NCBI RefSeq assembly: GCF_028641065.1
Contig: NC_073384.1
Location: 46,004,001-46,068,000, forward strand
Source of the DNA: Leucoraja erinacea
Taxonomy: Eukaryota
DNA: 64,000 nt
Direction: 5' to 3'
Of the stretch, positions 3,824 through 62,657 are shown in pieces (the stretch's first letter is position 1; every line of letters starts with the position of its first letter). Both the position numbers and the translations under genes were made by a program. Below the pieces are notes generated by a model, which saw only the letters and a program-made list of their open reading frames with translations, did not search any database and had not been told where the DNA came from.

Positions 3824-4562
3824 TTTAGAAACTAAATTGGAAAGAAGATGAAATGAATATCTGTTAAAAAAAAAAAAAAAACATTAGAAACCATTACGCA
3901 GATCGGCAAAGCGATGAAAAATGCAAACAAGCTGCGGAATTTATTTACATCGAAGAGAATACAAAATGATTGAACTTCCGTGCGCAGGAATCTCGCCAGG
4001 TTGCACCAGCATAGGTCCACGTAAAAGAAGGACTTGGACGCATTCGGGAAAAAACACAAAAGAGATTTGTAAGAGATGCATCAAATTAGTGATCATAGTT
4101 TCAGAAAAAAGAGATTTGGAAATGAGCTAATAAAGATCTGTGAATTCTTGTAAGTAAATTTTAAGCGGCGTGGAAGTAGCATTCTCGCAATGGCATGGAA
4201 TCTAAAGCATTGGTCGTTGAAAGGAAACTGTTCCTAACTCATCTTATGCAGAGTGTCAACTTGTTATCGAAGCATTTGGTTAAGATAAACAATTTGCATG
4301 TTTTAAAAGAAAGCCAGTACATGAGAGAAAGTTAGACATTGCCAAGCATTAGATCAAATAGGAGGTCAGATAAAGTCATACAAAAGTAATTACAGCTGCG
4401 GACCGGCTGAGTTACGTTTTCATTTCAGTATTGTATATTGTATGTAAATCTATGAAAGGTGAGATAATAAATGTCGATAATTACTATTAATTAGGATTTT
4501 TATTTGGTTAATAACCAACTTTGGCTTATAGTAGAAAATAACGTAGAATTTAATCAAGAGAA

Positions 4563-4775
4563 ATGTGTAAGAAGGAACTGCAGATGCTGGTTTAAACCGA
4601 AGATAAACACAAAGAGCTGGAGTAACTCAGAGGGAGAGGCAGCATCTCTGGAGAGGAGTGGGTGACGTTTCAGGTCGAGGCCCTTCAAGGGTCTCGACCC
4701 GAAACGTCACGCATTCCTTCTCTCCAGAGATGCTGCCTGTCCCGCTGAGTTACTCCAGCTTTTTGTGCCTATCTT
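4563..4775. mobile_element. Penelope-derived pLTR pair in inverted (hairpin) arrangement
   Basis: 4600-4687 is the approximate reverse complement of 4688-4775. Contains GGGTCTCGACCCGAAACGTC, but the CTGAAGA core is deleted at the junction. Confidence 0.75.
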
Positions 4776-4919
4776 GATCAAGAGAGATACCGAAATGGCA
4801 GAGATGCAAGAAAATAGCCAATAACCGGAAGAATATTGAGTAAATTGTAGGAACAATCCGACCTCGATATGTATGTCCACACGTCCGTAGCAGGTCAAGC
4901 CATTAATGTAGATAAAGGG

Positions 4920-5350
4920 TCATGCGGGATGTTTATTTGTGTCAACCAACCTATATGATACATGCAGGGACGTAATGCTACGGCTATATACAACTGACTA
5001 CATCTGGTGTCCGTATACATTTCTGGTTACCACGCTGCAGGAAGGAAGTGTGGAGAATACATTGAGAGGACTGAAAATATGTAATTATCAGAAAAGCTGG
5101 AATTGGTTGATTTGGAAGTCTGGGGGAAGCTTAAGTGAGATGCAAAAGCTATGAGGGAGCCAGATAAAGTCAATAGGATGGACTTATTTCTGAAGGCAGA
5201 GGCTGGGGCATGGAAAGCCTGGAAAACCCGACGTCGAGGAATTACTACAAGAATTAGCGGAAAGACGAAAACGTTTTTGTACTAAACGGTGGGTTCTGGC
5301 CGGTGGGCAATTGACTGAAATGGGGATAAAATCGAAACACTCATAGCATT
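4920..5350 (+). mobile_element. Highly degenerate CR1 LINE fragment
   Basis: Weak similarity to CR1 ORF2 3' part (cagggacgtaatgctacggctatata.., gatggacttatttc..). Confidence 0.5.
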
Positions 5351-5614
5351 TGAAGAGAACTTGAATAAATATGCACTTGGAACCATGACCCGTAGTACCG
5401 GGGTCTATCACCAGACGTTGCCTTCAGGTTGGGCAGTTCTCGAACTACATGATGGACCAAAATGTACCCCCCCCCCCCCCCCTCTCCCCCAAACCACCAA
5501 CCACCACAACTTTCCGAGTCATGATTTCCGTATGATTCAATTAGTCCATAGCTGGAATAATAGTTGAAAGATAAATGGTTAAAGTAAATAGACGGGTGCA
5601 TAAGTCTCTCGAAG

Positions 5615-6485
5615 CAAAACTGTACCGTCCAAGTTCATGAGCAGCTTCTTCCTTCCAGCCATCAGACTAATAAACAACACACCATTCAAATATGCTCCGA
5701 ACTACATTGACTTCGAGGCATTATCTTTTGTGCCTTTGNNNNNNNNNNNNNNNNNNNNNNNNNNNNNNNNNNNNNNNNNNNNNNNNNNNNNNNNNNNNNN
5801 NNNNNNNNNNNNNNNNNNNNNNNNNNNNNNNNNNNNNNNNNNNNNNNNNNNNNNNNNNNNNNNNNNNNNNNNNNNNNNNNNNNNNNNNNNNNNNNNNNNN
5901 NNNNNNNNNNNNNNNNNNNNNNNNNNNNNNNNNNNNNNNNNNNNNNNNNNNNNNNNNNNNNNNNNNNNNNNNNNNNNNNNNNNNNNNNNNNNNNNNNNNN
6001 NNNNNNNNNNNNNNNNNNNNNNNNNNNNNNNNNNNNNNNNNNNNNNNNNNNNNNNNNNNNNNNNNNNNNNNNNNNNNNNNNNNNNNNNNNNNNNNNNNNN
6101 NNNNNNNNNNNNNNNNNNNNNNNNNNNNNNNNNNNNNNNNNNNNNNNNNNNNNNNNNNNNNNNNNNNNNNNNNNNNNNNNNNNNNNNNNNNNNNNNNNNN
6201 NNTGAACTTTGCTTACAGAGTACTATGTTTACATATCGGTTGTGCTGCTACAGGTAAGAATCGGAAGAGTTGGATTTAGCTCTTAAGCCTGAGGAAATCA
6301 AGGGAAATGGGGGAAAAGCCTGAACGGGGTACAGATTTTGGATGATCAGCCATGATCATATTGAATGGCGGTGCTGGCTCCAGGGGCCGAATGGCCTACC
6401 CCTGCACCTATTTTCTATGTTTCTAATTCCACTGTTCCGTTTCGGGCCAAATGACAGTAAAACACTCTTGACGACTTTTGACTTT
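5615..6485 (+). mobile_element. Rex1/Babar LINE 3' end spanning the gap, interrupted by a CR1 3' tail (~6260-6425)
   Basis: cagcttcttccttccagccatcagact, tgtgctgctacaggtaagaat and aaacactcttga tail. Insert carries gatcagccatgatcatattgaatggcgg..ggccgaatggcctac..ttctatgtttct. Confidence 0.7.
5739..6202. other. Assembly gap (N run)
   Basis: Run of N. Confidence 1.
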
Positions 6486-8094
6486 TTCTAATTGGGGACT
6501 AATTAAAGTGCACAAATTTGTGGACATAAACTTACAACCTTTCAGTAAATCAGTTCATGAGCCTTTTTTTAAATTTGACCGGCTGATAAATATGTAAAAG
6601 CAAGGCGCTTTCAGTGATATTATCACCGTTTATGCATAAACTGGTGTCTTGCAATTTGTAATATACGTCCCAATATGTTCATATAACTCCCGCGAATGCA
6701 TGGGGGAAATGATAGCAATATGAGTTAAGGGACTGTCCATTCACTGTACGGGTCAAATGTTATCTTAAAATAAGTTCAAATATTAAACGGAAAATATTTT
6801 GAGAACATATGCAAAAGGAATTATTGACATTGATACGAGAATAAGTGACGGGGTAAAAACAAATCTGATTATTTCCCTCACTAATTAGAACACGCACATT
6901 TTGTCACTTCATGCAACAGTCTAAAAGTTCAAACCTGTAGCAACTCGCTGTTGTTAATATGCCGGAAAGAAACTCGGCACCGTATAATTAACACGCATCA
7001 TACGTTGTTAGATAATTGAGGCATTTATTTTTTCAATAAAATGTCGGTATAAAGCCAAATATGTACCTTATTTACCATTATTATTTTCAACTACGTCATA
7101 ATATGTTTTATGATGAAAAATTGGAAATGAATGGACTGGAAAATAGGTTTCCAACATTATCATGTCCTTGTGATAATACTGATGAATGCTAAGCATGGCT
7201 TCCCAGCGACCCATTGCTTTGTTCTTCGATATGCTTACAGATCCTGTACAGTGAACTTAAGTAACGCTGAATCTTGGACGAATGATAACTTATACATTAG
7301 GATATACGTTTACATAGTGAAATTGGTCCTATCCCAGTAATTATCCGGTAAAGATAATCTTCCTTTCCCTCTGGAAATCGCTCAGCGTTACTGGGTTTAA
7401 TTAAATGCGTAATCTAACTGCAGTGGAAACAATTAAAAACAACGGCAAATTCAACTGGTATTTAAACTATCGATTATTAAAGTTGATTATTGCAGCAAAC
7501 ACTATATAGCATATATCATATAACTTTGTTACAATATCTGACTATAACGTTCAGTCATATGCGAAGGAAATAATAATCTGTCTCATCGTGTGAATGGTTA
7601 AGTGATACCGAAGACAAATCTATAATTTATTCAAATCTTTTAATATGTCGCTATGTAGAGTAGTAATTTACACAAGAATGCAATGGCAAGCCACAGACAA
7701 TTGTTATCAGGTGTTGTACAAAGTGGAATATAATTAGTTCGATACTTGTCATAATTCGTCATACAAATTCTTGGCAACTATTGTAAACAAAACTCGCAGG
7801 TTCAATGATCCACCGTTTAACTTTAAACCAGTTGATGGAAAACGCAGTGGGAGGGGAAGATACCAATTCTCAATTTCTGTCACTACTGTTTCAGGACGTG
7901 TCTCCTTTTAGATTTCACACAGATATTGTGCACGATGGGTCATGCTGCCGGTGCTGCGGTGATCACTAACCAAGGGGATAGATTCCCCAAACTGACTTAG
8001 TCTCATATATGTTTTATTTTGGGGTTTAAATTAAAGTGGGTATTAATTCCACATGCCTTTTTCTGCTACAAAAATCGTCATCTCTGCCTTTTGA

Positions 8095-8340
8095 ATAAAA
8101 CCCAGCCAATGTATCGGAAAACAAGTTGAAGAGACTGTTGTCACGATTTTAATTGTATACTGTCACGCACAGGCAGTTGGATTCATAAATGACAGATGTA
8201 ACCAAACAATGGTTGTAACTATAACAATAAAGCATTATGCCACCGCTCTACTCACATTCAGATAGTAACTGGTAACCACTTCAGGTTTATTCAGCGGTCG
8301 CTCTTTCCATGGGAGAATTGTGACCTCTGGCGCTGTACAG
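8095..8340. promoter_or_regulatory. Candidate SIX3 upstream conserved non-coding element
   Basis: Unique sequence with clustered TGACAG (Meis/TALE), AACAATG and AACAATA (SOX) motifs in the TE-free block. Inference from motif content and position. Confidence 0.4.
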
Positions 8341-9814
8341 TTCGAAGTTTGCGAAAAACTTTGTCAAAAGGACATGCGATGCATTCATCACAATATTGCT
8401 AAGTACTCTCTTTGCATTATAGTCGGTAACATACAAAATGGGTAATAACTGAAAATTGATAATTAAAGAAAATTATGCCCAGTATGATTAATATCCTTGG
8501 TCGAAAATTGTACCAAGAATGATCGTGTTTCAGTTATACTACAAATGAACATGTTTCAGTTTTATACGGAAAAGCCCAGTAAGGTTATCAGTCTCGGATG
8601 TGGGATGGATATGCCAATTATTGGTTAAATAAAACACATTATGCTTGCCGCAGCGGAAGCATGCGCTGTAACTTTCAACATGTTACTACGTTAGCAAATG
8701 GATCTTTTGGAGAAGAATGTTGTATTGCCAAAGCCTCCTAAAATTGAGATCCTATTTTCTCATTCATTTATTCGTATTAATATTATTATTTAGTGAAGTG
8801 GCACGATAATCCTCTAACATTAAAACCTTGCGCTTGAGTGACTCATCTGTTGAGTGCAATGCAGGCGATGGAAATCAATGTATCTGCTGCAGGCTAGGCT
8901 AATGGATTAGAATTAGTCTATAGTGTAGAGTGTTCGATAGCATGGGGGATGGTGATTCTTGAACCGGGATTGTGCAGCTCCCGTTTATCTATAACAAGAT
9001 GTCCGTAATCCAAATAAAGTAATCATCACCAGCATGAAAAGTTCCGGCAGCATTATGTCCTTACTGTAAGGAGATAGTTCTCACACGCACAAATTGATGA
9101 AGGCGCTCAGCTAGTGAAACGGGAACTGATTTGGCAAATTGTTCTTTCATCATCTGTCAGCGGCTTTTTTTTTGGAATAAAACAACATTAAAAGAAACCT
9201 TTTATCCTCATTTCGCTCTCCCTCGGGGAGCGCTATACATTTGTTTCAAATAATTTACTTTAAGATTTCAAAAGACTAATTGATTTTTAAGTGCTAACTC
9301 AGTGGGGGGAAAAGCACAATGCCATACGCCAAAAGCAAGCAATTGGCAATCGAAAGGTTACCTGAATTTCATGGCAATCGTGGGTTTTTATTCGGGAGAA
9401 CTCAAGATGGGCATCTGCTTAGAGCCGCTCGAGGGACCGATTATGTAGAGGCAGTTAAGTCAACTTTTTTTGACTAAAGCAGATTGAAATGTCAAGCCGA
9501 CTGACCAATGAGCCATGATAGCACCATATGATATTATATTGTGTTGAACTGGATTCAGTGCTTTTATTCATGTAACTAATTCGTTTTGACACATACACAC
9601 ATAACCCGGTAGCAGGAAGCCCGGCGTTCACCCTTCACCCTGTCCTCCTCCCAATAACTTCACCACCACCCCTCTCCCCACCCCCACCACCCATCGCCAC
9701 ACAAAAAAAAACGCTACTAAATTTCTGGGCTCGGACTCACATCTTTGTTCAATTCATTAGAAGTAACGAGTTGACATAAGGTAAATCGGCGGTAAGGCGC
9801 CTTTATTTCTTGTC

Positions 9815-9935
9815 TATAGGGCGACCTCATTAAATATCGCTAACAAGGCGTGCAAATCCCCTGATTGGACAGACGTCGTGTAACGCTCTGCCCCTTGCAG
9901 GATGTACACTTAATGAAGGCAACGGGAACAGTGAC
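9815..9935. promoter_or_regulatory. Candidate SIX3 upstream enhancer
   Basis: CCTCATTAAATATCGCTAACAAG..GTGCAAAT..TGATTGGACAG..TTAATGA: homeodomain, POU-like and Pbx/CCAAT-like motifs. Resembles, from memory and not aligned, a conserved block upstream of fish six3 genes. Confidence 0.45.
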
Positions 9936-12319
9936 GGACAAGAATTTCCAAATGCCCCAACTAAATGAGTGAGAGTTTGCAACCGCATCGTTTGATACCT
10001 GTTTCCATTTTCAACACAAACTGCACATATTTTCCGAGGTTGATAGCAAATACGATTGTAAAAAGCAACGGATCCTTCTAATCTATCAGAATCTTATCGT
10101 CCATATTCTGAAATGATATAAACATATTAAAATCCACAGCGTAAGGGGCTTGGCCATCAATGTTTCATTTTGATAAAAGTTTACAGCGCGCCTTCCCCAG
10201 ACGCTTGATTATTAAGATTGCCCGGTATTTGTTTAAAATATCGCAATTATAAGAACAAACTTTTAAAAGATTGGTGATTTCAGCAGATGCTTCGGACATC
10301 CGCTGCTGCTGATTGCGCTTCAGTTTGTAAAGTCTCATCTTTGTTTTGAAATCTCCTGTGTGAGCTCATCCCTCCCGAGATCTGTCGACTTTTGACTTTG
10401 GGAGTCTCGAAATATCTGCGTCTCTGCATTTCTGACCTTTTGGACATTCCCGCTGCATCACTGGAAGACGCGCCCTTTCCACTTCCAGGACAAACTCCGG
10501 AATCGTCCTGTCTCCCGAAAAACACTTCTTCGTTCCTTTGCTTCCCTGTAGAACTGATTGACCAGGTTTTGCGACATTTCCCCTAATACCCCTCCATGCG
10601 TCTCTTTGGTTATATTGAGTGTGTAGGAAATCGAGTTGCGTTTATGGGGCCGGATAAAAGTAATGTCCGTGTGATGATTGTAGTTGGTGAGGGGGAAAAG
10701 TGGTTAGTCGGCTTTGCAGCGTGCTGTAGCAATAGGGTTAAAACTTAAGCGGTGTCTTTTCAGCCCAGATCTGCGAGCAGGACAAAACATAAAGCGGTTA
10801 ATCGGTGGAATCTTATCGTAATCGCAATGATACCGGCGTATAGTTGGCTGAGAAGGGAGAATGCTCCATATTTCCTAATAAATGGCTGAATTACATTTTT
10901 TTTTAAATGTCCATGAACGACCATGAGTTGCCGTGACCTATTAGTTTTACTTTATAATACTTTCCGCCTCATATTACAAAGACTGGACAAGCAACAATGG
11001 AATATGTTTATTTAGGCGGGTTATGATAAATTAAAACGAAATATTTCAGCTTTAAACATCCAATTAATATAATATTCAATAAATCAATATAACATGCAAT
11101 TGACTTGATTGTGCATTCAAATTAGTCGTATGGTTTTCTATGTGATATGTCAAGTGTACTGGAATTTGATTTTAGGCGGAATTTAAAATTTCCATTTCTA
11201 TGTAGATGTTTTTTCCACCTGGGTGTAATTGTCTATCATTGAGTTGTAACCGCTTGCATTGAAATGATTGAAAGTACAAACGCTACCCTGATTTATCCGT
11301 GATAAAACCAGATGAAAGCCCGACGCTGTAGCTTTACAAGTGCACAGATACCAAAAAATGCTTATTAGTGAAAAGAAGACATACATTTGTTAAATGGTCA
11401 ATCCACGATCCAGTGCGAACATATCAGATACAGTACAATTAATGATGTATGCAAAACTAACGATGAATCATAAAAGTAATATATTTCAGTCCTGAGGATC
11501 AATGGCACACAGTTCAGGCAACAAATGAATCTGAGCTGGCTTGGTATTGAAAATAGCGTTAAGGGATACAGGTCCAGTGAAGCTCACATTGAACCAGCCA
11601 CCTTAAAGATACAAGGTCAATGCAAGAGGAAGGAATGAAGGAAACAGTAGTGGAGGATACAAAACAAATTGAACATTTAACAAGCAACACAAAACAAACA
11701 GAACAAAAGCCAAATTAATGCATCTAATTGTATTTGCGACACCAGGACCGGCAACAGTGGCGTGACCGCACTAAATATATAAAATAATAAATTCGCCAAT
11801 TCCACCCCGTGAAATAGGTAACAAGCCCAAAGTCGACGGTCCCATGTTGGTTTAACAAAAAGAAAACACTATAGAAAGTTATTTTAAAAAAAAATCATTA
11901 TAGCGTAATCATTCTACCCTATGCTAACAGGTTGAACTAATTCTATTCATAACGTTATTAAATACATAATGATTCAACATTATTTTGAAGTACTCATACT
12001 TCCGCTTCCTCACCTCTGTAAACATTACGGGTGATCAAACAGCGCTGGACTTTCCACGTTAAATGATAACCGGGTTTTAATACTTTGGCAATACTGGCTC
12101 TTCAACTTCAGTCATATGCTGTACTGTTTGATGTTATGAAAAGTGCAAACCGACAAGACTCTGTGACGGCTACAAAAACTTAAAATAATTTCAATTAAAT
12201 GGAAACTTACAGGGAATTAATGCAAGGTATCTCCGGGGAGAATCCTGGATGTAGTAATCACCTCTTTCGGATGCCGGTCTATCACTTTGTCTAATTGCAG
12301 AATGTCTTCATATTTGTGA

Positions 12320-13200: not shown

Positions 13201-14479
13201 CATACCCATACCACCCATTAGCGTTATTATCTTTGTGCACCGCAAATTCGCCCTGTTCCCTTTCCCCCCCTACAAAAAACAGCAATATCTTTTCCTTTCC
13301 ATTTGAGTTTGGAAAGCAGATCGTGCCTTTACCGTACACCTCTCGTTTCCTCCGATCTGCTTTGGAATGTGCAAGAGAACGAAAAAAAAGTTTTGAATTC
13401 CTCAATGATTTCCTCCCCCCCTGTAGAAAGGCGGCTTAGGATAATTATTTCAGCTTTATTGAAAGCAGATTAGTTGAAGTCTGGATGCTGCGTTTCAATA
13501 CGCGTTGTACAATCCGGTACAATGTCCGTATTGTTCGCTACTGTGTGTGAACCCATTGAAAATATACACTTTTTAACACCAAGTAAAATCCTGTCTAAAT
13601 ATACACCGTAAGGCTGGAAAGACGTCCATGACCCGTGCAAATCTTTGTAAATCACACTTCCATAGTTACAGAAGCCAAACAAAAGAGCCAACAGCTCAAG
13701 ATGCTGATTAAACCCTTCTTAAAGGCAAACATACCTAATCATAAAATATACTGGGACTGCACCGATGACCAATAGAACGTCTGGCGCTGGTACCGTTCGA
13801 ATAACAGCTTTAAAACATAAACCATGATTTCAACAACTACAAGCCAATGATTAAATATGACTTTGTTTTTGTTCTAATACAGCGTGTTACGTCTACCTGC
13901 GAACTATCCACATCCGTTCCATGGACTCCCACATAACCTATCTGCGCGATGTCTTTTACACAAGCTTCAATGATCCATGCTCAATGTACAGTATCATTAT
14001 TTGCAGGATCCAAAAAAAACCCGGCTTCGGGTTGGCAGTTACGCTATTAATTAGGAGTTGCGAGCACCAGGAAAGCACGATGCTAAAGGCAGATTAAAAC
14101 ATACCCTTTCTAGATATAGAGCCATGACATAAACATGGGTCTAATGATCTCATTTTTATTTTATTCCCCAGTACTATAAATGCTCATACCAGCAGAATGA
14201 AATGAAACTACGTGCAAATCATGTGTAAACTGTCCCACTTAGGAGCCCTCTATTCCAGCCAACACCACAGGCTCTCCCATTTGCTTCCCCCCTATCTTCC
14301 AGACTTAAGGAGAATTGTAACGATCGCAGTAATATTTTCGCCCTCTAATCACTCGTCCCATTCAGCAATATGTGCGCGGTGAGGTTTTCACATGTGAACT
14401 TTTGGAGAGGTAGGTGGGCGATGTGGAGATGTATTTCAGATAACCCCTGCACAGCCCCGAAGTGGTGGATGCCTCTACG

Positions 14480-14689: not shown

Positions 14690-15372
14690 ATGGTGTTCAG
14701 GTCGCAGCTAGAGCTGTACAGCGCTCTGCCTCTCCTGCCAAACTCAACCGAGAGCGCGTTTCTCTTCCTAGCCAGCTCCCAGCCCCAAGAAGAGTTGTCA
14801 ATGTTCCAGCTACCGACCATCAATTTCACTCCGGAGCAAGTGGCCAGCGTTTGCGAGACGCTGGAGGAAACGGGAGACATCGAAAGATTGGGACGTTTCC
14901 TTTGGTCTTTACCTGTGGCGCCGGGGGCATGCGAGGCAATCAACAAACACGAGTCGATCCTCAGAGCCCGGGCGGTTGTAGCCTTCCACACGGGCAACTT
15001 CCGAGACTTGTACCACATCCTGGAGAACCACAAGTTCACCAAGGAATCGCACGGCAAGCTTCAGGCGATGTGGCTCGAAGCGCACTACCAAGAGGCCGAG
15101 AAATTGAGGGGTCGCCCACTGGGGCCGGTCGATAAGTACCGCGTCCGTAAGAAGTTTCCCTTGCCCCGGACCATCTGGGACGGCGAGCAGAAAACGCACT
15201 GTTTCAAAGAGAGGACCCGCAGCTTGTTGCGAGAATGGTACTTGCAGGACCCATACCCAAACCCTTCCAAAAAAAGGGAACTGGCCCAGGCAACCGGCCT
15301 CACGCCGACTCAAGTAGGGAACTGGTTTAAAAACCGTAGGCAGAGAGACAGAGCGGCCGCCGCCAAAAACAG
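14690..15372 (+). CDS. SIX3: SIX homeobox 3, coding exon 1 (N-terminus, SIX domain, K50 homeodomain)
   Basis: [128 protein letters not shown]. The MVFRS N-terminus is SIX3-specific. Phase-2 donor AG|GTTCGT at 15372/15373. Confidence 0.97.
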
Positions 15373-24370: not shown

Positions 24371-24510
24371 GGATACAGTCTGAAGAAGGGTCCAGACCAG
24401 AAAAGTCGCGTATCCATGTTCTCCAGAGATGCTGCCGGACCCGCTGCATTAGTCCAATACTTTGTGTATTTTATTGTTGTACACCATCATCTACAGTTCC
24501 CTGCATCTCG
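24371..24510 (+). mobile_element. Penelope-derived pLTR with degenerate hammerhead motif
   Basis: CTGAAGAAGGGTCCAGACCAGAAAAGTC (24380-24407) followed by ctccagagatgctgcc..ccatcatctacagttcc. Confidence 0.7.
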
Positions 24511-25371: not shown

Positions 25372-25702
25372 GTAGACACGAGGAACTGCAGATGCTGCAA
25401 TCATGCGTCGACCACAAAGCTTGGATAGACACAAAAAACTGGAATAAATCAGCGGGACAGGGAGCATCTCTGGAGCGAAGGAGTGGGTGACGTTTCGGGT
25501 CGAGACCCTTCTTCAGACAACGTCGCTGGAGGATATGGATAGGCGTCATTTCGGAACGGTGCCCCGCTTCACACTCAACTATGGAGGAAGTGGAGGCGGA
25601 TATTCTGAAGAATGGTCTCGACCCGAAGCGTCACCCATTCCTTCTCTCCAGAGATGTTGCCTGTCCCGCTGAGTTAGTCCAGCATGTTGTGTCTATCTTC
25701 GG
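25372..25702. mobile_element. Inverted pair of Penelope-derived pLTRs
   Basis: Minus-strand arm ~25424-25518 and plus-strand arm 25605-25702 are reverse complements around an ~85 bp spacer. Confidence 0.8.
25489..25516 (-). ncRNA. Minimal type-I hammerhead ribozyme motif (intact core)
   Basis: Minus strand reads CUGAAGA-A-GGGU-CUCG-ACCC-GAAA-C-GUC: CUGANGA and GAAA boxes, stem II hairpin, GUC cleavage triplet. Confidence 0.7.
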
Positions 25703-25870
25703 ATATTATCAAAACCGTTAAGAAGCATTTAGATAAGGACTTGAGTCCCCGAGGCTGAGAAGACTACGGGCCAAATACGGGTAAATGTTTAGCATGGGCA
25801 TGATGAGCCGTAAGACCTTCTTCTTTGTTGTATGGCTCTAATAGCAACTGCCCAGCATCTCCCTTTGCAC

Positions 25871-25966
25871 GAAGATAGACACAAAAAGCTGGAGTAACTC
25901 AGCCGGGCAGGCAGCATCTCTGGGGAGAAGGGATGGGTGACGTTTCGGGTCGAGACCCTTCTTCAG
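25871..25966 (-). mobile_element. Penelope-derived pLTR with intact hammerhead core (25939-25966)
   Basis: gacgtttcgggtcgagacccttcttcag is the reverse complement of CTGAAGAAGGGTCTCGACCCGAAACGTC. Confidence 0.75.
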
Positions 25967-33138: not shown

Positions 33139-34275
33139 TTGAACATTGAATTCTCCAATTTTAGGTTGCTACATAACCTTCCTCTTCTTCCCCCATATAA
33201 CCCCGACCACCTTCTCTCCCCTTCCTTCTGCTCTCCCCTGAGTCCCACCTGGCTCACACCCATTTCTCCCCTGCCATTCCACTTACTACATTCCTTCCTC
33301 TAGCTTCACAATTTGCAAATTTTCAATCCTTTTGTGTAACCCCTTCATCTTTCACCTGAAACATAGAAAGTAGGTGCAGGAGTCGGCCATTCGGCCCTTC
33401 GAGCCAGCACCGCCATTCAATATGATCATGGCTGATCATCCAGAATCAGGATCCTGTTCCTGCTTTTTCCCTGTGTCCCTTGATTCAGTTAGTCCTAAGA
33501 GTTATATCTAACTCTCTCTTGAAAATATCCAGTGAATTGGCCTACATTGCTTTCTGTGGCAGAGAATTCCAAAGATTCACAACTTTCTGGGTGAAAAAGG
33601 TTTTCATCATCTCAGTCCTAAATGGCCTACCCCTTATTTTTAAACTCTGACCCCTGGTTCTTGACCTCCCCAACATTTGGAAATGTTTTCCTGCATCTAG
33701 CCTGTCTAATCCCTTAAGAATTTTATATGTTTCTATAAGATAGCCTTCTTATAGAATCCTTCTAAATTCCAGTGAATATGCCTATCAAATAACCCTCCTC
33801 ACCCGTGTTGGCCTATTGCCTGCCAGGCTTTTCCTGCCCCTCTTCTCTTCCAGCTTTCTTCCCCCCTCTCCAAAGCAATCTGAAGAAGGGTCACTGCGGC
33901 GACTTTTGCAGAGCACCAGAAATAGAAAAGGTTCATCTACAACTTCTATCAACTCACCTGGATCAGGGAAACGGCAGTAATCGGTACCGTTTCAGACAAG
34001 CTGCTTGGGCAGCTGAAAGCGCTGGCAAGTTATTCATGTGTGTATATATTTATAGTATGGTATATGGACATATGGATCTGTTTTGTAGTAAATGCCTACT
34101 ATGTCTGTGTGCTGAAGCAAAGCAAGAATTTCATTGCCCGATCAGGGACACATGACAATAAACTCACTTGAACTTGAACTTTAACTCAAAATATCATCTA
34201 TCTGTGTTCTCCTGATTTGCTGCCTGAGCTAGTTCAGCAATTTGTGCCTCATTTTGTAACCAGCATCTGTGCTCC
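33139..34275 (+). mobile_element. Penelope-like 3' remnant with nested CR1 (minus, ~33360-33780) and nested LINE tail (plus, ~33893-34180)
   Basis: LNIEFSNFR at ~33139-33165, CT-rich tract, CTGAAGAAGGGTC at 33880-92, resuming after the insert at 34181 (ttaactcaaaatatc..tgctgcctgagc..accagcatctg). Confidence 0.7.
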
Positions 34276-34544
34276 TTTTGATTCAACTTGTATTATCTAA
34301 ATACAATATGGCAAGGAAGAATCAAGAATTTGTCTTGGCATTTGTAGTATACGGAAAAGGTACACCAAATGGATGTTGAATTCCATGTCTATTCTGCAAA
34401 ACAAAATGGTCCTCTTGAATTTTTACAGGGGTTTGATTGCCTTGAATGTCCATTTGTCATGTGTGAGCTGAGAGCTGTCCCTGTCTGACATCCATACATG
34501 AACATGCTCTGCTGACGTCATTGGATACCGATCAGGACCAAGAG

Positions 34545-34672
34545 TGTAGGAAGGAATTGGTGATGCCGGTTTCCACCAAAGATAGACACAAAATGCGGAA
34601 TAACTCAGCGGGACAAACATCGTCTCTGGACAGAAGGAATGGGTGACGTTTTGGGTCGAGATGTTTCTTCAA
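34545..34672 (-). mobile_element. Penelope-derived pLTR
   Basis: gatagacacaaaatgcggaataactcagcgggac..gggtgacgttttgggtcgagatgtttcttc. Confidence 0.7.
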
Positions 34673-35310: not shown

Positions 35311-35315
35311 AAACA

Positions 35316-35462
35316 AACAGCATCTCTAGAGAGAAGGAAAGGGTGACGTTTTCAGGTCAAGAAATCTGAAGAAGGGTCTCAACCTGAAATGTCACCCATT
35401 TCTTCTCTTCAGAGATGCTGCATGTCCCACTGAGTTACTCCAGCATTTTGTGTCTATCTTCA
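35316..35462. mobile_element. Inverted pair of Penelope-derived pLTRs with plus-strand hammerhead-like core (35366-35393)
   Basis: cagcatctctagagagaaggaaagggtgacgtttt followed by CTGAAGAAGGGTCTCAACCTGAAATGTCacccatttcttctcttcagagatgctg. Confidence 0.72.
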
Positions 35463-36198
35463 GGACCAAGACTAATAGCTGTTAATTGTCATCTTCTGAG
35501 GACAGTGGTGCCTGGCTTAAAGTTCTCTGCTGGGGCTCCAGCTGAGATCAGCTTCTGGTTTGTACAGCTCAGTTACACAATGCATTTATCTTATCAAACT
35601 GGGCAAAAGTGCCTATCAGAGGCAGCATTTGCAGCAAGAAGCTTTCATCTGCTCTTTTTGAATGCATTTCCACATTCATTCCACCAGATGGGAGGAATAT
35701 ATGACACCAAAAAAAAGTATGGCAACTTAAAATTAGAAGTTAAGAAATCAAAGCTGCACTAGTTATGAATGGTATAGATTAATATACATCATAATCTAAG
35801 ACACAACATTTCAGTATTGTTCTGAAGATGGATGAGAGGACAGATCAATCATTTATCCCTGCTGCAAAGAGCTCACAACGATACCTTGATGAGTTTTATA
35901 TATTATCTAACATACTATCGGATTAAATTATAGATTTGCTCATGTCACTATTTCAGTCAATTATATAGCTAACGATGTCTGTTGTATGATTTATATCTTG
36001 CTGCCCAAAAAAGATGAATTAATTTGTATCAAAGATAGTTTATTACCTTTGAAATTACTACATATATTTACATATTATTAGATATATTTAAATATAATCA
36101 TTACTTATGGGTATATTATTGGTTGATTATATTTGGAACCGAATGGCATTGATTGTTTGAAATGGATTATGTGAAGGTGCCCCGCAATTTGTATTAAC

Positions 36199-36325
36199 AA
36201 GGAACTGTAGATGCTGGTTTGTACCAAGGATAGACACAACTGTCGGAGTAACTCAGAGCATCAGGCAGCATCTCTGGATAAAATGGATAGATGATGTTTT
36301 AGGTCAGGATCCTTCTTCAGACTGA
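36199..36325 (-). mobile_element. Penelope-derived pLTR
   Basis: aaggaactgtagatgctggttt..ggagtaactcag..gcagcatctctgg..gatgttttaggtcaggatccttcttcagactg. Confidence 0.7.
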
Positions 36326-37559
36326 ACAGCAATTTGTATCGCCTTGTATGAGTATGTGAAGTGCTCTAAATGTGTGTATGGCTGCGTATAATAGTTAGGT
36401 TATGTCTGGCTTTATACTGATGTATGAGAGATCATGTTTACAAATTTGTATTAGTAGAGGTGAGAATCCAGTATAGGATTTTATTTGGGGGTTTGCCGAG
36501 GTGCATTTTGTGGTCAGATTTGCAAATGCCATTGAATTTGTGCAGTATCTTTCAATCTAAATGTATGACATTTCCTCCATATATAATGCATGCAATTATA
36601 TGAGTTTGTGATGTAGAAATTAGCATGTTCCTGTTTGTCCAGATTTCTATTGCTATATGTGGAAATAATAGGCTGATTTTTGGATTTGTGTGCCGTTGTT
36701 GCCATTTTGTGTTTCAATTATATTCATAAATGACAGTGGGGTCAAGGAAAGAGCGTTCACATCGCGGCCTTGTTTTCACCAATCTTTCCATCACCATGCA
36801 TAAGAAGCACAAGAAGCGCAAGACAGACACCATTGTGCAGATGCCAATAAGTGTGTGTGTGTTCAGCTCTGGCTAAACAACATAATCTTTTGTGTGGACT
36901 CGATAAGAAGATAAATAACAATCGATAAGTTTCTGTGGGAACATATGAACATAAAAATGCGCATATGGATTTATATTGGAGTTTCATTTTTGAGTCCATT
37001 TGCTGCATTACATATACATGTTTCTACATATATATTTATATCCTATAAAAGGCAGCACATGGGTTTTGATCATATATGAAACCAAATGTAGGTTTGTGAT
37101 CAGGTGTGAAATGTTATGTCTGAATTTAATACGAATAATTAAATTGTATGTATGATTTTATTACTTGTCATTCGTGGTCATTATGACATTGTATTGAAGA
37201 AATTGCAGACATATGTAAGATTATATTTATGAATTTATATTCATCCATGAGTTTTATTTGTAAGTATCTGAATGTGACCACTTGCATGGACATGTTGCTG
37301 TATGCAAAACAGATAGATATATGTCCGTTTATGTTGTGCTTATCAGTGTTGGTGTCTGAGTTTGTTTTGATATCTGAATGTGTTCAATTTTGGTTCAAAC
37401 ACGAATGTATTCAGACCCGTGAAGGTTTGGGGTTACTGTGGATGAGTTGTTGGTAGAGGTGTTAGATAGGATGCCTGGACTTTTATTGCAATCTGCAAAG
37501 AAGTTTGATTTTTGACTGTGCGTTGTGTGTGAGAGAGAGACACACACACACAAGGAGAG

Positions 37560-39100: not shown

Positions 39101-42094
39101 TATATACCAGATATCATAATCACATGTCACATCTAACCACCGATAGTCTTTGATTAAAGCCCCTGGTATTTCTTAGTCGACAGGATACATTATAATTCAA
39201 AGCTTTTCACTGTACCTCGGTACACGTGATAATAAACTAAACTCATTGTGTTCTATTTCAGGCCAGAGGGTCGCCATGATATATCCCCTTTAGTCTTATT
39301 TATTTGGACTCTGAAAGGAAAAATAGCTGGACTTGATTCAGACATGACTCAATGATGATTCACTGATTCCATGTTACTTTATTGTACACACAGGTATCAC
39401 CACACATGTCTCAGACATGACAGGGGAGTGGTGTTACACAGAAAGGAGCCATATAAGTGTTCCCATAAAGAATACTCATTACATATAAGACAAGTGGAGA
39501 TTTTACTCCCGACACTCTAGATGGCTATAAAAAACGGAAGACTCTGGGGGAAAAAAGGCAAGGATAGTTAACTTGACACTTATGTGTTAAATGCACACTT
39601 ATGTACTCTCCGCGCGGAATACGCGAGGGTAACGAGGTTCGGCTTGTCAGAAAGGAGCTATACACGTGATTGACATAGTTACTTAAACAAAAATGACACA
39701 TTAATCAGGCCTGTTCCAGAAAAGGCGAGTCGTCAATATCGAAAGTTTACGACAGCTACCCATCCACCGCTTCCTTCAAATAGATAATAATCTATAATGC
39801 ATCCGCGGTGAATGTATTATTCGAGATAAGTTATTTTATTTGCTGTTGCGGAACAATACGGATGCATGCCGATCTGTCATCATGTTCATCGTTGTAATCT
39901 TAGTTTTGATTGAAGGGGCTTATTTGATAATAAGGGACATTTAGACGATGCAAAACTGGACCCAACGATGACATTCAGACGGATGTATGTATGTATGCAC
40001 AAGCACTCAAGAACAATCGGAGTAATCTCTCTCAAACCACGTATTATCCCACCCCAAGTGCACAGCGAATATTCCCAAATAAACGAGTGTCATTAGTATA
40101 GGTAGATTAAAAAAATTAAACGAGTTTGTAGTTTGCGAAATCACATGTCAATAGACAATAGACAATCGGTGCAGGAGTAGGCCATTCGGCCCTTCGAGCC
40201 AGCACCGCCATTCAATGTGAAAAAAGATCCTTCTTTGGATGTGTTAGGAAGGACAAATACCTGCGACGGAATGCAATTTAAATGAAGTACAGATTAAGTG
40301 CATAATCTTTGGCAATTTCGGAGCCACATTAACTGCGGGACTGTGCTCGCCTCGCTCCGTTCGCTCTTTCCTCTGAGATCGGAATAAACGCCTTTCGGTA
40401 GCGGATACCGTAAACACAGTTTTGTAAAGATGAATTCTCTTCATAGATTCAAGTATTCTCCCAAAAAACCCACACATACATAAATAGGTTAATACGTGGA
40501 CCCGAATGCAGATACAGGTATGCCAATATAAGGCTTAAGGGGCAGAACGTCTAATTAAAAGGTTATACCATGTGAGTGGTGAAAGGTAGCTTAAGCGAAG
40601 GGGTTTATAATTTATTTTATAATTTCGTGAAAAATCGAACGGTTAAGCGTTGCGTCAGATTGGATGTTCAGTGGGATCCCGGAAACTGAGGTTAGTAGCT
40701 GTCTGAGAGACACTAACCCGAATCTAAACAGACTTCGATTTCACACAAAGTGATCGGTTCAATGGGTGGCGGAAATGTAAAATGTACACATCTGGAAGTG
40801 CGAACAGGTTGGAATGGAATGTACATTGCCGTCAGTCTGCCTGCGCTGTAAAGTCTTTTATAATCAATATTGGACGTTGTGCGTCCACCGGACCTCCAGA
40901 GTAAGATAAGGGCAGATAACTAAAGCTTTCAACAATAAATACTGTCACTTAAACCCAAGCCGGAATCAACGCCGCGTTAAACTGTAGTCAGTTTCTCAGC
41001 TCCGCTGGTGATCTCACAGAGACTGCACCGTGTGACTGACATCCCCAGCGCTTCTCCAGGCCATGAAAACCGCCCGTCATTACATCACTTTAATTCCTAA
41101 TTTCTCACTTCTTGCTTGGTCTCATTGCCTGGGGGAAGGTTAATAGAGAAGGGATGGTCTCTGAAAGAGTTAATCCATCGACCTACTTAGGAGAGTGTTT
41201 ACATTTGGCGATTTATACACAACATGCCAATCTACATGTAAACACACAGACATACATGTATAATATTCACATAGGTAACGCACATGGACTTGATGCACAT
41301 ATAAATATTGAATAGACGCACTCACATATATAACATATATGACACGAGTACGATTATGTGTCATGCACAAATGTTATAGATAGTTATAGCTATACACAAT
41401 ATAAACAGCGAGCTTAGTTATAAAGCGCATTAAGTACAATTATGTTTCCATGTACACATATATTACTCAGATTTGCATATACGGTTAGATAGGGAATTAG
41501 TTCGCAAATCCCCAACAGGGAACGGTTTTAACTGACTTGTAAATAATGCGTCCAAGATACACTACACTGGCGTAAAGTACTCGCTTCGTTTGAAAAGTGG
41601 TATTAATGATCATCAAAATAGACACAAGGTCTGAGCTGTGAGGCTCTGGTGGTATTGTAGCGCCATCGTGTGGCCAGGCCAGCCACGAAGTAACTTCATC
41701 TCAATGGAGCCACAAGGAACTGCAGATGCTGGGAACGTGAGCAAAAAGCTGGCGGAACTCAGCAGGCCAAGCAGCATCTGTGGAGGGAATGGACAGACGA
41801 CGTTATTTGTTTCAGTCGGACCTGCTGCAGTTTGCGTCCCTCCAGCAGTTTGCTTATTGCCTTAATTTCCATTGTGTTCGTCCTCCTGAATCATTTTCCT
41901 GCGGCACTCAGACACGAATAAAAAGAAGACTAGATTACTTGAGAGGGGATTCTAAATATTTTCATCATATTTCTGAGTATAATAACATATTAAAATAATT
42001 GCAACGCGCAATTCGGTGGCATCTAAAGTTTGATAAATACTTTTTGGCATGCACATAAACAGCAGTTCACATAAACATGCCCGGGAGAATTTGA

Positions 42095-44040
42095 AGAGAG
42101 TCAAGAGACAAGAGTGTTTAATTGTCCGAAAGACCGAAAGTGGAACATCGGCGATCTTATTTGCAGTAGCAGAACAGGCAAGTGCATACAATACGCATTG
42201 ATAATATGTAATGATTAAAAAAAAAAACTGGTGCGGCAGCTTTTTCACACAAAGGGTGGTGGGTGTATGGAACGAGCTGCCAGAGGAGGTAGTTAAGGCT
42301 GGGACTATCCTACTGTTTAAGAGACATTTACACACTTACATGGATAGGACAGATTTAGATGGATGAGTGGGACTAGTTTACATGGGACATGTTGGTCGGT
42401 GTGGGCAAGTTGGGCTGAAGGGCCTGTTTCCACACCGCATCATTCTATGACTAAAAAGTTAAGAAGAAAATGCATGTAGATAAGTAGAGCAGATTTGAAG
42501 GAGGAGTGAAATGTAAAGGCAGAGACAAAGGTTTATGGGTGGAAAGGAACATAGAAAAGGAGGGGGGAGAGTGGGCTTGGGCAGATGGGTGAAGGGAAAA
42601 CAGACACAAAGTGCTGGAGTAACTCAGTGGGTCAGGCAGCATCTCTGGAGAAAAGGTATAGGTTATATTTCGGGTCTAGGCCCTTCTTCAGTAATATTCA
42701 TGATGTGACATGCATAAACATTCCTGAATGTTACCTAAACCATTGTGAGCTACTTTGATACGGTGCTTGCCCTCTCCTTTAACGTCTCTGCTGCCTTGGG
42801 TGATGCAGGACAGGACACAAGCTTTGGGACACGGTGTGAAGCTGTTGCCGTCTGTCCCAGCCTGGTAAAAACCTGGATAGAGTGGATGTGGAGAGGATGT
42901 TTCCACTAGTGGGAGAGTCTAGGACCAGTGGCCACAGCCTCAGAATTAAAAGACATTCCTGCCACAGACAGCTGTGGAGGTCAAGTCAATGGACATTTTT
43001 CAGGAGCAGATTGATAGATTCTTGATTGATACAGGTGTCAGAGGTAATGGGGAGAAGGCAGGAGAATGGGTTTGAGAGGGAAAGATAGATAGTCATATAG
43101 TAATACAGTGTGGAAACAGGCCCTTCGGCCCAGCATGTCCCATCTACACTAGTCCCATCTGCCCACGTTTGATCCAGATTCCTCCGAACCTGTCCTATCC
43201 ATGTACTGTTTCTTAAATGTTGTGATAGTCCCTGCCTCAACTACCTCCTCTGGCAGCTTGTTCCATACACCGACCACCCTTTGTGTGAAAAATATACCCC
43301 TCAGATTCCTATTAAATCTTTTGCCCTTCACCTTAAACTTATGTCCTCTGCTCCTCGATTCGCCTACTCTGGGAAAATAGACAACCATATCTATTCAAAT
43401 CATGATTTTATACACCTCTATTAGATCATCCCTCATCCTCCTGTGCTCCATGAAATAGAGTCCCAGCCTACTCAACCTCTCCCTATAGCTCTGGCCCTCT
43501 AGTCCTGGCAACATCCTCATAAATCTTCACTGTACCCTTTCCAGTTTGATGACATATTTCCTATAACATGGTGCCCAGAACTGAACACAATACTCTGAAT
43601 GCAGCCTCACCAACTTCTTATGCAACTGCAACATGACCTCCCAACCTCCATACTCAGCCTGACCCGCTGAGTTACTCCAGCACTCTGTGAAATGTCACAG
43701 AACAGGGCAAGATTAGCAAGTTTGCTGATGATACAGAAGTGAGTGGTTTTGCAGATAGTGAAGATGGTTGTGAAAGATTGCAGCAGGATCTGGATCAATT
43801 AGCCAGGTGGGCAGAGGAATGGTTGATGGTTGCATGGTTCCTTGAAGGTCGAGTCGCAGGTATATCAGGTGGTCAAAAAGTATTTTGGCACTTTGGCCTT
43901 CATCAGTCAGAGTATTGAGTATAGAAGTTGGGAGGTCATGTTGCAGTTGTATGAGACGTTGGTGAGACCGCATTTAGAATATTGTGTTCAGTTCTGGGCA
44001 CCATGTTATAGGAAAGATGCCAAATTGAAAAGAGTACAGA
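42095..44040. mobile_element. Cluster of CR1/HER1-like fragments in both orientations, plus a Penelope pLTR (minus, ~42600-42691)
   Basis: FFTQRVVGVWNKLPEEVVEAG (43149-43388, minus), [29 protein letters not shown] (43830-44040, plus); tttcgggtctaggcccttcttcag at ~42668-42691. Confidence 0.8.
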
Positions 44041-55177: not shown

Positions 55178-56006
55178 CTCTGGAGAAATGAAAAAGGTGA
55201 CTTTTCGGGTCAAGACCCTTTTTCAGACTGAAGAAGGGTCCCGACCCAAAACATCACCCATTCCTCTCCTCCATAGATGCTGCCTGACCCACTGAGTTAC
55301 TCTAGCATTTTGTATCTATCCTCAGTGCATTATGCCCCTGTCCCACTTAGGTGATTTTTTCAGCAACTACAGGTGACTGGGCTGTTTTCACATGGTTGCG
55401 GGGTGATGCCTGTCTGGTCGTGAGTAGTCTCCTTAAGTCGCCTAAACAGTCGTTACGTTTTTCTGGTCTCGGCTGGATTTTGAAATGTTCAAAGCTTTTC
55501 GCCGACTGTGGGCTTGATGTAGCTTGTGTTCTCCTGTCACAGGTGCTGTTGTAGGCTGTCGCCAGGATGACGCAGGTTGTGGCCAGGCGCTGACTTCGGT
55601 GAATCCTATTGGCGATTTCCTACATCAACCTATGTCAACCAGCGACTGAATTGTCTTCAGTTGTCTTCAGTTATCGCCGACAGGATCGTTGTTTGTCGTA
55701 GCTTGTCGTGCATGGACGTAGGTTGACTTCGGTTGTTGTAGGTTGTTGCCTGTGTGGTCGTAGGTTGTTGTAGGTGTGGTCGTAGGTGGATGTCCTAAGT
55801 CGCGACAATTGGGTCACCGGTTGTCGGTAACTTGCCGTAGCTTGACGTCGACTAGGTGGTAGGTTGTCGTAGACATTGTCATAGGGGGGGTCCAGTCGCC
55901 GCTATTTCAGCAACCTGCTACGACTGTGACAGTCGCCGGCAGTCACCAAAAAAATCACCTAAATGGGACAGGCCCTTAAACCAGCATCTGCAGTTCCTTC
56001 CTACAC
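55178..56006. mobile_element. Head-to-head Penelope pLTR pair interrupted by a Harbinger MITE
   Basis: gacttttcgggtcaagaccctttttcag-a-ctgaagaagggtcccgacccaaaacatc centred at ~55227. The element resumes at ~55977 (aaaccagcatctgcagttccttcctacac). Confidence 0.75.
55334..55975. mobile_element. Harbinger MITE with internal (GTAGGTTGTC)-type minisatellite
   Basis: GCCCCTGTCCCACTTAGGTGATTTTTT ... AAAAAATCACCTAAATGGGACAGGCCC, flanked by TAT/TTA. Confidence 0.85.
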
Positions 56007-56349
56007 AGGTTTGCTATACATTCTGTCTTGAGGCATCCGTTGCATGGTCACTTCATAAGAATAATTGGAGGTAATTAATATCATATACTATTTCAACCCC
56101 TAAACTATTTCTCCAAACACGGTATTTTTAGCTTTCTGCGGAATCACAAAGTTAATGTTTGCACAATACACTCAGAGCTGACTTTTGTGAGTAAAATTAC
56201 ATTCTCTCATTCCCTCATTGACTGTGTGATATCATTACCATCTTCCTCATCAAGAATATATGTCCCACAAAATACATCTCCAAACTCTCCATATAGGATG
56301 CGAATGATTCACTTCATTATAAATCCAAGACTCCCCTGCAAAGCTTTTC

Positions 56350-62504: not shown

Positions 62505-62625
62505 TCTGAATGGTCGCAACCCAAAACATCACATCCATATTCTTCAGAGATACTGCCTGACCCATTGAGTTACTCCAGCTTTTCATGCCTATCTTTGGTA
62601 TAAACCAGCATCTGCAGCTCATTTC
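62505..62625 (+). mobile_element. Degenerate Penelope-derived pLTR
   Basis: ctgaatggtcgcaacccaaaacatc..agagatactgcctgacccattgagttactccagc..accagcatctgcag. Confidence 0.65.
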
Positions 62626-62657
62626 TATTAGAATAGATCAGAATCTGATGTTTTTAT

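Follow-up and report, generated by a model that had tools for sequence, protein, structure and literature searches.

Background

Why does a short repeat with a hammerhead-like head recur around SIX3 in the skate Leucoraja erinacea? A sequence-only reading of the window, by which we mean the whole 64-kb stretch of DNA analysed (contig NC_073384.1, positions 46,004,001 to 46,068,000), had proposed a non-autonomous family that seeds self-cleaving motifs near a developmental locus. We consider it probable that the repeats are pLTR pieces of a Penelope-like element (PLE) encoding RT and GIY-YIG domains, evenly spread, with a hammerhead that is probably inert, and likely made by copying the first 100-135 nt of uncut RNA. 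The parentage, the pLTR-ORF-pLTR layout, the two 3' ends, the inverted pairs, the target duplications, the sharp 5' boundary and the lack of enrichment at SIX3 are secure observations.

Dispersed minimal hammerhead ribozymes (min-HHRs) from truncated PLEs have been known since 2014 (PMC4209133), and finding one here is ordinary. Most are described as dispersed singles or close opposite-strand pairs derived from truncated PLEs (PMC4209133, Cervera & de la Pena 2014), with no cleavage as monomers and low cleavage as dimers (PMC4209133). A literature search outside Repbase, Dfam and Lunse et al. 2017 returned no paper that treats this family or describes promoter sequence shared with a PLE hammerhead. 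The family occupies ~4% of a 2.2-Gb genome and includes a young subfamily of 97-99% identity, which makes it a good system for studying PLE copying. Its sharp 5' boundary bears on the role of PLE hammerheads, in that the RNA that was copied had not been cut and appears to stop immediately ahead of the core. Should the boundary be a transcription start, the conservation of the 'ribozyme' might partly reflect promoter function.

Results

Repeat copies in the window

A profile built from 15 genomic copies identified 17 segments in the window, and its reversed-sequence control yielded 0 segments in 380 kb of sample blocks. The profile recovered 11 of the 13 repeat places listed in the sequence-only reading; the other two (~28995 and 33880) have a degenerate head only and were unscored. 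A repeat length of ~130-150 bp had been given, and the copies are actually ~100 or ~130 nt long, with two 3' ends. The minus strand has exact matches to the 28-nt head CTGAAGAAGGGTCTCGACCCGAAACGTC at 25516-25489 and 25966-25939, as previously read.

The first of these heads belongs to a PLE pLTR end with a decayed tail (25381..25518, minus strand). Its min-HHR core (25489..25516, minus strand) consists of CUGAAGA, an extra A after A9, a 4-bp stem II, GAAA, the ACGU palindrome that stands for stem III and a GUC triplet; it overlaps MTE/DPE-like motifs. The palindrome and the extra A are present as described. Stem I of this copy is the expected 2 bp (GU/AC). The second copy (25870..25966, minus strand) is tail-less with an intact core at 25966-25939, and there the description of stem I does not hold, because GAG precedes the core and leaves no stem I. 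Between them lies a tail-less pLTR end with a broken GAAA (25604..25704, plus strand), head-to-head with the 25516 copy across an 88-nt spacer.

Of the longer segments in the window, 14 in all, a loose test for the core is passed by 5. Inverted head-to-head pairs on both strands occur at 4563..4776 (minus arm with a tail, plus arm without, CUGA absent in both), 35313..35464 and 55178..55326, the last joined at a CAG-T-CTG palindrome. Single pLTR ends with a tail are located at 24375..24502 (plus, diverged), 34544..34672 (minus, broken core), 36195..36325 (minus, diverged, broken core) and 62508..62627 (plus, diverged), and a tail-less one at 42596..42691 (minus). A weak segment at 34182..34276 (plus) and an old pLTR end at 41714..41810 (minus) are truncated at the 5' end, and an isolated tail fragment lies at 55976..56008 (plus). 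No PLE ORF remnant was found in the 64-kb window. Separately, a weak CPEB3-ribozyme match at 36726-36789 (24 bits, E=0.057, cut-off 35) is likely due to chance.

Genome-wide abundance and the SIX3 question

The profile search was extended to contigs C1-C34, which were sampled as 98 blocks, each 10 kb long and positioned at round coordinates. It found 370 segments in 980 kb (4.4% of bases), which bears out the very high copy number claimed for the repeat. Extrapolated to the 2.19-Gb genome, this amounts to ~0.83 million segments, with each arm of an inverted pair counted, and to ~150,000 core-intact copies (70 in 980 kb by the loose core test). An exact 30-mer occurs 11,482 times genome-wide; its control occurs 0 times.

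The window contains a SIX3-type homeobox on the plus strand (~15150-15370, approximate bounds), which we take to be SIX3 from a sequence motif and from Six3os1 matches in Rfam. Conserved regions 5 and 7 of Six3os1 exceed the Rfam cut-off at window positions 9748-10004 and 13333-13527, in a non-mammalian genome. As a location, 'around SIX3' is correct. Copy density is nevertheless unremarkable, as the window contains 17 segments where 24 would be expected (P(<=17)=0.13) and 60 kb of flanks contain 17. The repeats are spread evenly through the genome and are not enriched at SIX3. We regard it as very improbable that SIX3-proximal copies were retained as regulatory self-cleaving elements. Two exact cores in 64 kb do exceed the ~0.3 predicted from the 11,482 copies, although the window was chosen for them; density is raised neither in the window nor in its flanks, and both named copies run antisense to SIX3 at a distance of ~10 kb past the homeobox, with stem I missing from one of them. 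The idea of working ribozymes seeded near a developmental locus is not supported, given the lack of enrichment, the antisense orientation, and the absence of covariation and of a read-end pile-up reported below.

The parent element

Genomic copies often run upstream into a decayed GIY-YIG (EN) end and RT, and one (L130) has a PLE body flanked by the repeat on either side (pLTR-ORF-pLTR). The Penelope-like origin proposed for the repeats is confirmed by such full-length copies elsewhere in the genome. A second long copy, L280, consists of pLTR, tail, an ATG ~165 nt after CUGA, ORF and pLTR, with 3,238 nt between its two hammerheads and a 775-aa open frame from RT to EN; the best 40 copies of its subfamily by score are 97-99% identical. 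Young full-length copies include one at C7:42769689-42773288. Another, L273, matches RVT_1 (E=1.5e-6) and GIY-YIG (E=0.0046) in Pfam, both under the curated cut-offs. L280 and L273 carry breaks, and no wholly intact ORF was seen. Both have the CxxxxCxxC linker, as PCNRKRCNTC, by which PMC8557442 defines Neptune/Nematis, and this motif would place the parent with these two clades without telling them apart. Short and long copies have subfamily bases in common. The GIY-YIG ORF end is still present upstream in 28 of 179 anchored copies, which belong to several subfamilies, among them the youngest and that of the window.

The family resembles the canonical EN+ PLE of Neptune/Nematis type, as described in PMC8557442, in its RT with DKG and YIDD, its CxxxxCxxC linker, its C-terminal GIY-YIG, its pLTRs, the inverted 5'-truncated partner and the 30-40-bp tail. 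It differs from that description in that 5' truncation in the skate is concentrated in the few bases before the hammerhead core.

The top GIY-YIG family matches (L031-L033) were considered as the parent and rejected, as they form a separate, telomere-linked PLE family in which a simple pattern detected no hammerhead. This PLE is near-identical in three places (C23:2058-5309, C37:13145203-13148454 and C39:12328488-12331739), with a 759-aa frame containing RT and GIY-YIG. The first of the three lies 3.5 kb from the start of its contig and runs directly into (CCCTAA)n and a satellite of 16 bp, and an EN-bearing PLE attached to telomeric repeats is unusual.

Anatomy and origin of the short copies

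The short copies are 100-135-nt pLTR ends with an optional tail of ~35 nt. Over the 370 sampled segments, 3' ends cluster at +90-102 and +122-132, ~35 nt apart, and neighbouring copies form 61 head-to-head pairs, 3 tail-to-tail pairs and 13 direct tandems. An optional 30-40-bp tail and an inverted partner are known marks of PLEs (PMC8557442).

For most short copies the best reading is that ORF-bearing masters produced them directly, because the EN end is kept across subfamilies and mini forms make up only 3 of 179 copies; a minor non-autonomous lineage may exist in addition. The sequence-only reading had favoured a non-autonomous family of SINE or retrozyme type, moved by a PLE helper, and we now judge such a family, with masters of its own, unlikely. 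Such a family would fit the short majority, the fixed 5' end and the target duplications, and internally deleted forms, in which the tail and ATG region are joined to the next hammerhead, do exist (3/179 and 1/62). Short copies, however, share their subfamily bases with long ones, several subfamilies are still joined to the GIY-YIG end, and direct tandems are rare (13/370). The short copies also lack the post-tail sequence that the Anolis PLE template requires according to PMC11167929. The Rfam scan returned no tRNA, 5S or 7SL match over the window copies. The mini forms L190, L188, L147 and L311 contain the tail and the first 40-110 nt past the ATG, followed by the next hammerhead, and are candidates for true non-autonomous PLEs.

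As to retrozymes, the skate copies resemble the non-LTR retrozymes of PMC7229834 and bioRxiv 10.64898/2026.07.22.740005 in having a type I hammerhead, PLE ancestry and no coding capacity. Retrozymes are described there as tandem arrays, whereas skate copies are mostly single or in inverted pairs, and the tandem hammerhead units that define a retrozyme are scarce among the 370 segments. The preprint (bioRxiv 10.64898/2026.07.22.740005) includes one chondrichthyan. For circular RNA, no RNA-supported back-joint was present among the joints listed, which derive from poly(A) reads, a library type unsuited to this purpose.

The hammerhead motif

Positions are numbered with +1 as the C of CUGA, 0 as T, -1 as G and -2 as A, which puts the predicted cut between +28 and +29. 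The repeat head contains CUGANGA, GAAA and NUH, a base between 9 and 10.1, G10.1-C11.1 and a palindromic 15.2-16.2, so that the minimal hammerhead anatomy proposed for it agrees with the min-HHR description in PMC4209133. The Rfam scan of the window gave no hammerhead-family match at E<=1. A descriptor search returned 136 matches in 1.8 Mb of loci enriched for this PLE family and 0 in the reversed control. The helix I of 4-5 bp expected of a minimal type I hammerhead is uncommon: stem I has 2 bp in 88 of 128 descriptor matches and at least 4 bp in 8, the third pair is A-C in 238 of 286, and an exact pattern for a longer-stem-I form had 0 matches. The old copies L140 and L192 carry one additional base ahead of the core and another behind the triplet, a hint that stem I may have been longer in an older form.

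Compared with the metazoan PLE min-HHRs of PMC4209133, the skate motif shares the core boxes, the 9/10.1 base, G10.1-C11.1, the 15.2-16.2 palindrome, the site in the pLTR and the dispersal as singles or opposite-strand pairs. Its 4-bp helix II counts as a difference, and its 2-bp helix I is like that of D. virilis (2 bp) and shorter than that of S. mansoni (4-5 bp). The ~150,000 core-intact skate copies compare with 4,000-9,000 in coelacanth and Xenopus, counted with a different descriptor (PMC4209133). Two supplement files of that paper contain no shark or skate term.

The hammerhead is probably inert in the dispersed copies, and several observations speak against its function. Paired counts equalled the independence expectation for 9 of 9 stem pairs in 361 copies, a test of low power within one genome. 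The predicted folds of monomer and dimer are not hammerhead, and in the youngest subfamily the closing pair is U-G and the triplet GUU. Poly(A) short reads of a relative (run X15) showed no read-end pile-up at the cut site, which argues against efficient cutting of dispersed copies, in a library ill-suited to ends; the reads were mostly 90-95% alike and made up about 6% of the run, with depths of 1291 and 1408 on the two strands in the hammerhead bin. Within the same run, the L280 ORF body showed a ~2-4-fold strand bias, antisense if the library is of the usual kind, and the hammerhead-tail part was even.

It is conceivable, and to us somewhat short of an even chance, that master elements have a working hammerhead, acting as a dimer or aided by PLE protein, and that this activity keeps the head conserved. 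None of 11 core columns varied between subfamilies at K=6 (23/82 other columns, p=0.06) or at K=8 (26/82, p=0.03), and the changes seen within the motif (loop II, U-A to U-G, C17 to U) are all compatible with the fold. The hammerhead of the Anolis PLE is reported in PMC11167929 to cleave with protein help. The contrast weakens at K=10, however (1/11 core columns vs 27/82 others, p=0.16), and non-core blocks are as invariant as the core; the lack of covariation, the short stem I and the predicted folds weigh against activity in masters too. Such activity can coexist with the proposed origin of the short copies as cDNAs of an RNA leader.

A sharp 5' boundary

In the unbiased genomic sample, the rate at which copies stop at the 5' side was 8.5% per nt at -5..+1, 1.2% at +2..+25 and 0.46% at +26..+31, the region of the cut site. 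Since the profile contains the upstream sequence of one subfamily only, this peak is inflated, and the boundary was rechecked in a single young subfamily against its natural parent. The sample comprised the first 82 of 100 listed places, out of 8,573 matches, in 80 regions, all on contig C1; copies were selected for an intact +1..+31, and shorter copies were not counted. The match to the parent extended no more than 7 nt upstream in 76 of the 82 and at least 12 nt in 5. Flanking direct repeats of 9-18 nt were found in 30 of the 82 (one being a tandem artefact), compared with 1/82 in the control, and in 26 of these 30 the element reaches at most A(-2), i.e. no more than 3 nt upstream of the core. 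The commonest boundary was G(-1), in 24/82, vs 17/82 for the predicted start A(-2). Copies L285-L364 have target-site duplications of 9-18 bp, and microhomology of 1-3 nt or a few additional bases are frequent at their 5' junctions. Copying of a cap G was considered: by eye, G preceded AGT in 9 of 15 young copies but in 2 of 12 of the window's subfamily, and pure G made up 3 of 13 junction extras; cap-G copying is not claimed.

The match of this boundary to an initiator with MTE/DPE-like motifs in register, described below, suggests that the copies may be complete cDNAs of an RNA leader. In the reading that we favour, the element's own enzyme would copy just the first 100-135 nt of its uncut RNA; that the templates were uncut follows from the 28 nt ahead of the cut site, which the copies retain. 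By analogy with the Anolis PLE (PMC11167929), reverse transcription would start internally, ~+95 or +130 of the core. The chances appear evenly balanced that the RNA starts at the initiator TCAGT, on the A three bases before CUGA, and that copying runs off the RNA 5' end. A start at A(-2) combined with internal priming at +95/+130 would give exactly such short copies and would limit stem I to 3 bp, and read-through transcripts would give the rarer long ones. Poseidon_Ac of Anolis, as described by Frangieh et al. 2024 (PMC11167929), likewise has two internal RT start sites that bound the tail and an uncut RNA template, with no RNA-seq ends at the cut site. Its ORF starts inside stem II, whereas the skate ATG lies beyond the tail.

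Transcription start, splice site or promoter

The boundary falls on TCAGTC/CCAGTC, which matches the initiator (Inr 5-6/6) with its A+1 at A(-2). Counted from that A, and with consensus sequences from PMC5580651 and PMC4422821, the MTE matches at 7-8 of 10 positions (+18..+27) and the DPE at 4 of 5 (+28..+32), best at shift 0; among 2,230 background YCAGTY sites, 15 scored at least 11 and 1 at least 12. The MTE/DPE match was noticed post hoc, and the hammerhead core likewise fixes 7 of the matching positions. The X15 reads, poly(A) short reads of a relative, showed no pile-up of molecule starts at the initiator.

The pLTR of D. virilis Penelope contains an internal promoter of Inr/DPE type (PMC2377424); its start lies ~120 nt upstream (PMC4209133, PMC2377424), and an intron extends as far as the 5' end of helix I (PMC4209133). 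It follows from this arrangement that YCAG|T may be a splice acceptor, and such an acceptor, D. virilis-like, is the main rival to a transcription start. We hold it possible, though doubtful, that the copies have the same origin and that their boundary marks a 3' splice site, or the edge of a folded hammerhead that stops RT, with no transcription start. A splice site would agree with the intron end in D. virilis, and in ORF-linked subfamilies the words upstream are rich in pyrimidines and have YCAG as their last bases; yet 96 solo copies have no shared upstream exon, no RNA-only joint at AG|U was among those listed, with nearby skips also present in contigs of runs X9/X10, and the candidate donor at the ATG is lost in the young subfamily. 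Splicing from that ATG donor to the AG before the core was accordingly rejected. A stop at a folded edge would account for the modal boundary at G(-1), the first base of the 2-bp stem I, but pairing of 2 bp is too weak for RT to be blocked. Splicing to host exons was also rejected. About 35% of exon ends have A at -3, and the 4 of 44 copies with AG that do so, counted by eye, are well below this.

The preferred origin, leader cDNAs of uncut RNA, allows a further and more tentative proposal, namely that the head is dually coded: as DNA it would serve as an internal promoter with Inr, MTE and DPE, and as RNA it would make up the transcript's first 31 bases. The short copies would be complete 'strong-stop-like' cDNAs, and each would be a portable core promoter, not a ribozyme. 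An analogy exists in Pr77 of trypanosome L1Tc (PMC4748587), a 5' segment that acts as a DPE-bearing promoter as DNA and as a ribozyme as RNA; Pr77 differs in having an HDV ribozyme, in element class and in kingdom, and its dual role is proven, whereas the skate case is a motif match. Were dual coding true, stem I would be capped at 2-3 bp, and hundreds of thousands of short copies, ~4% of the genome, would run from the internal priming site to the cap.
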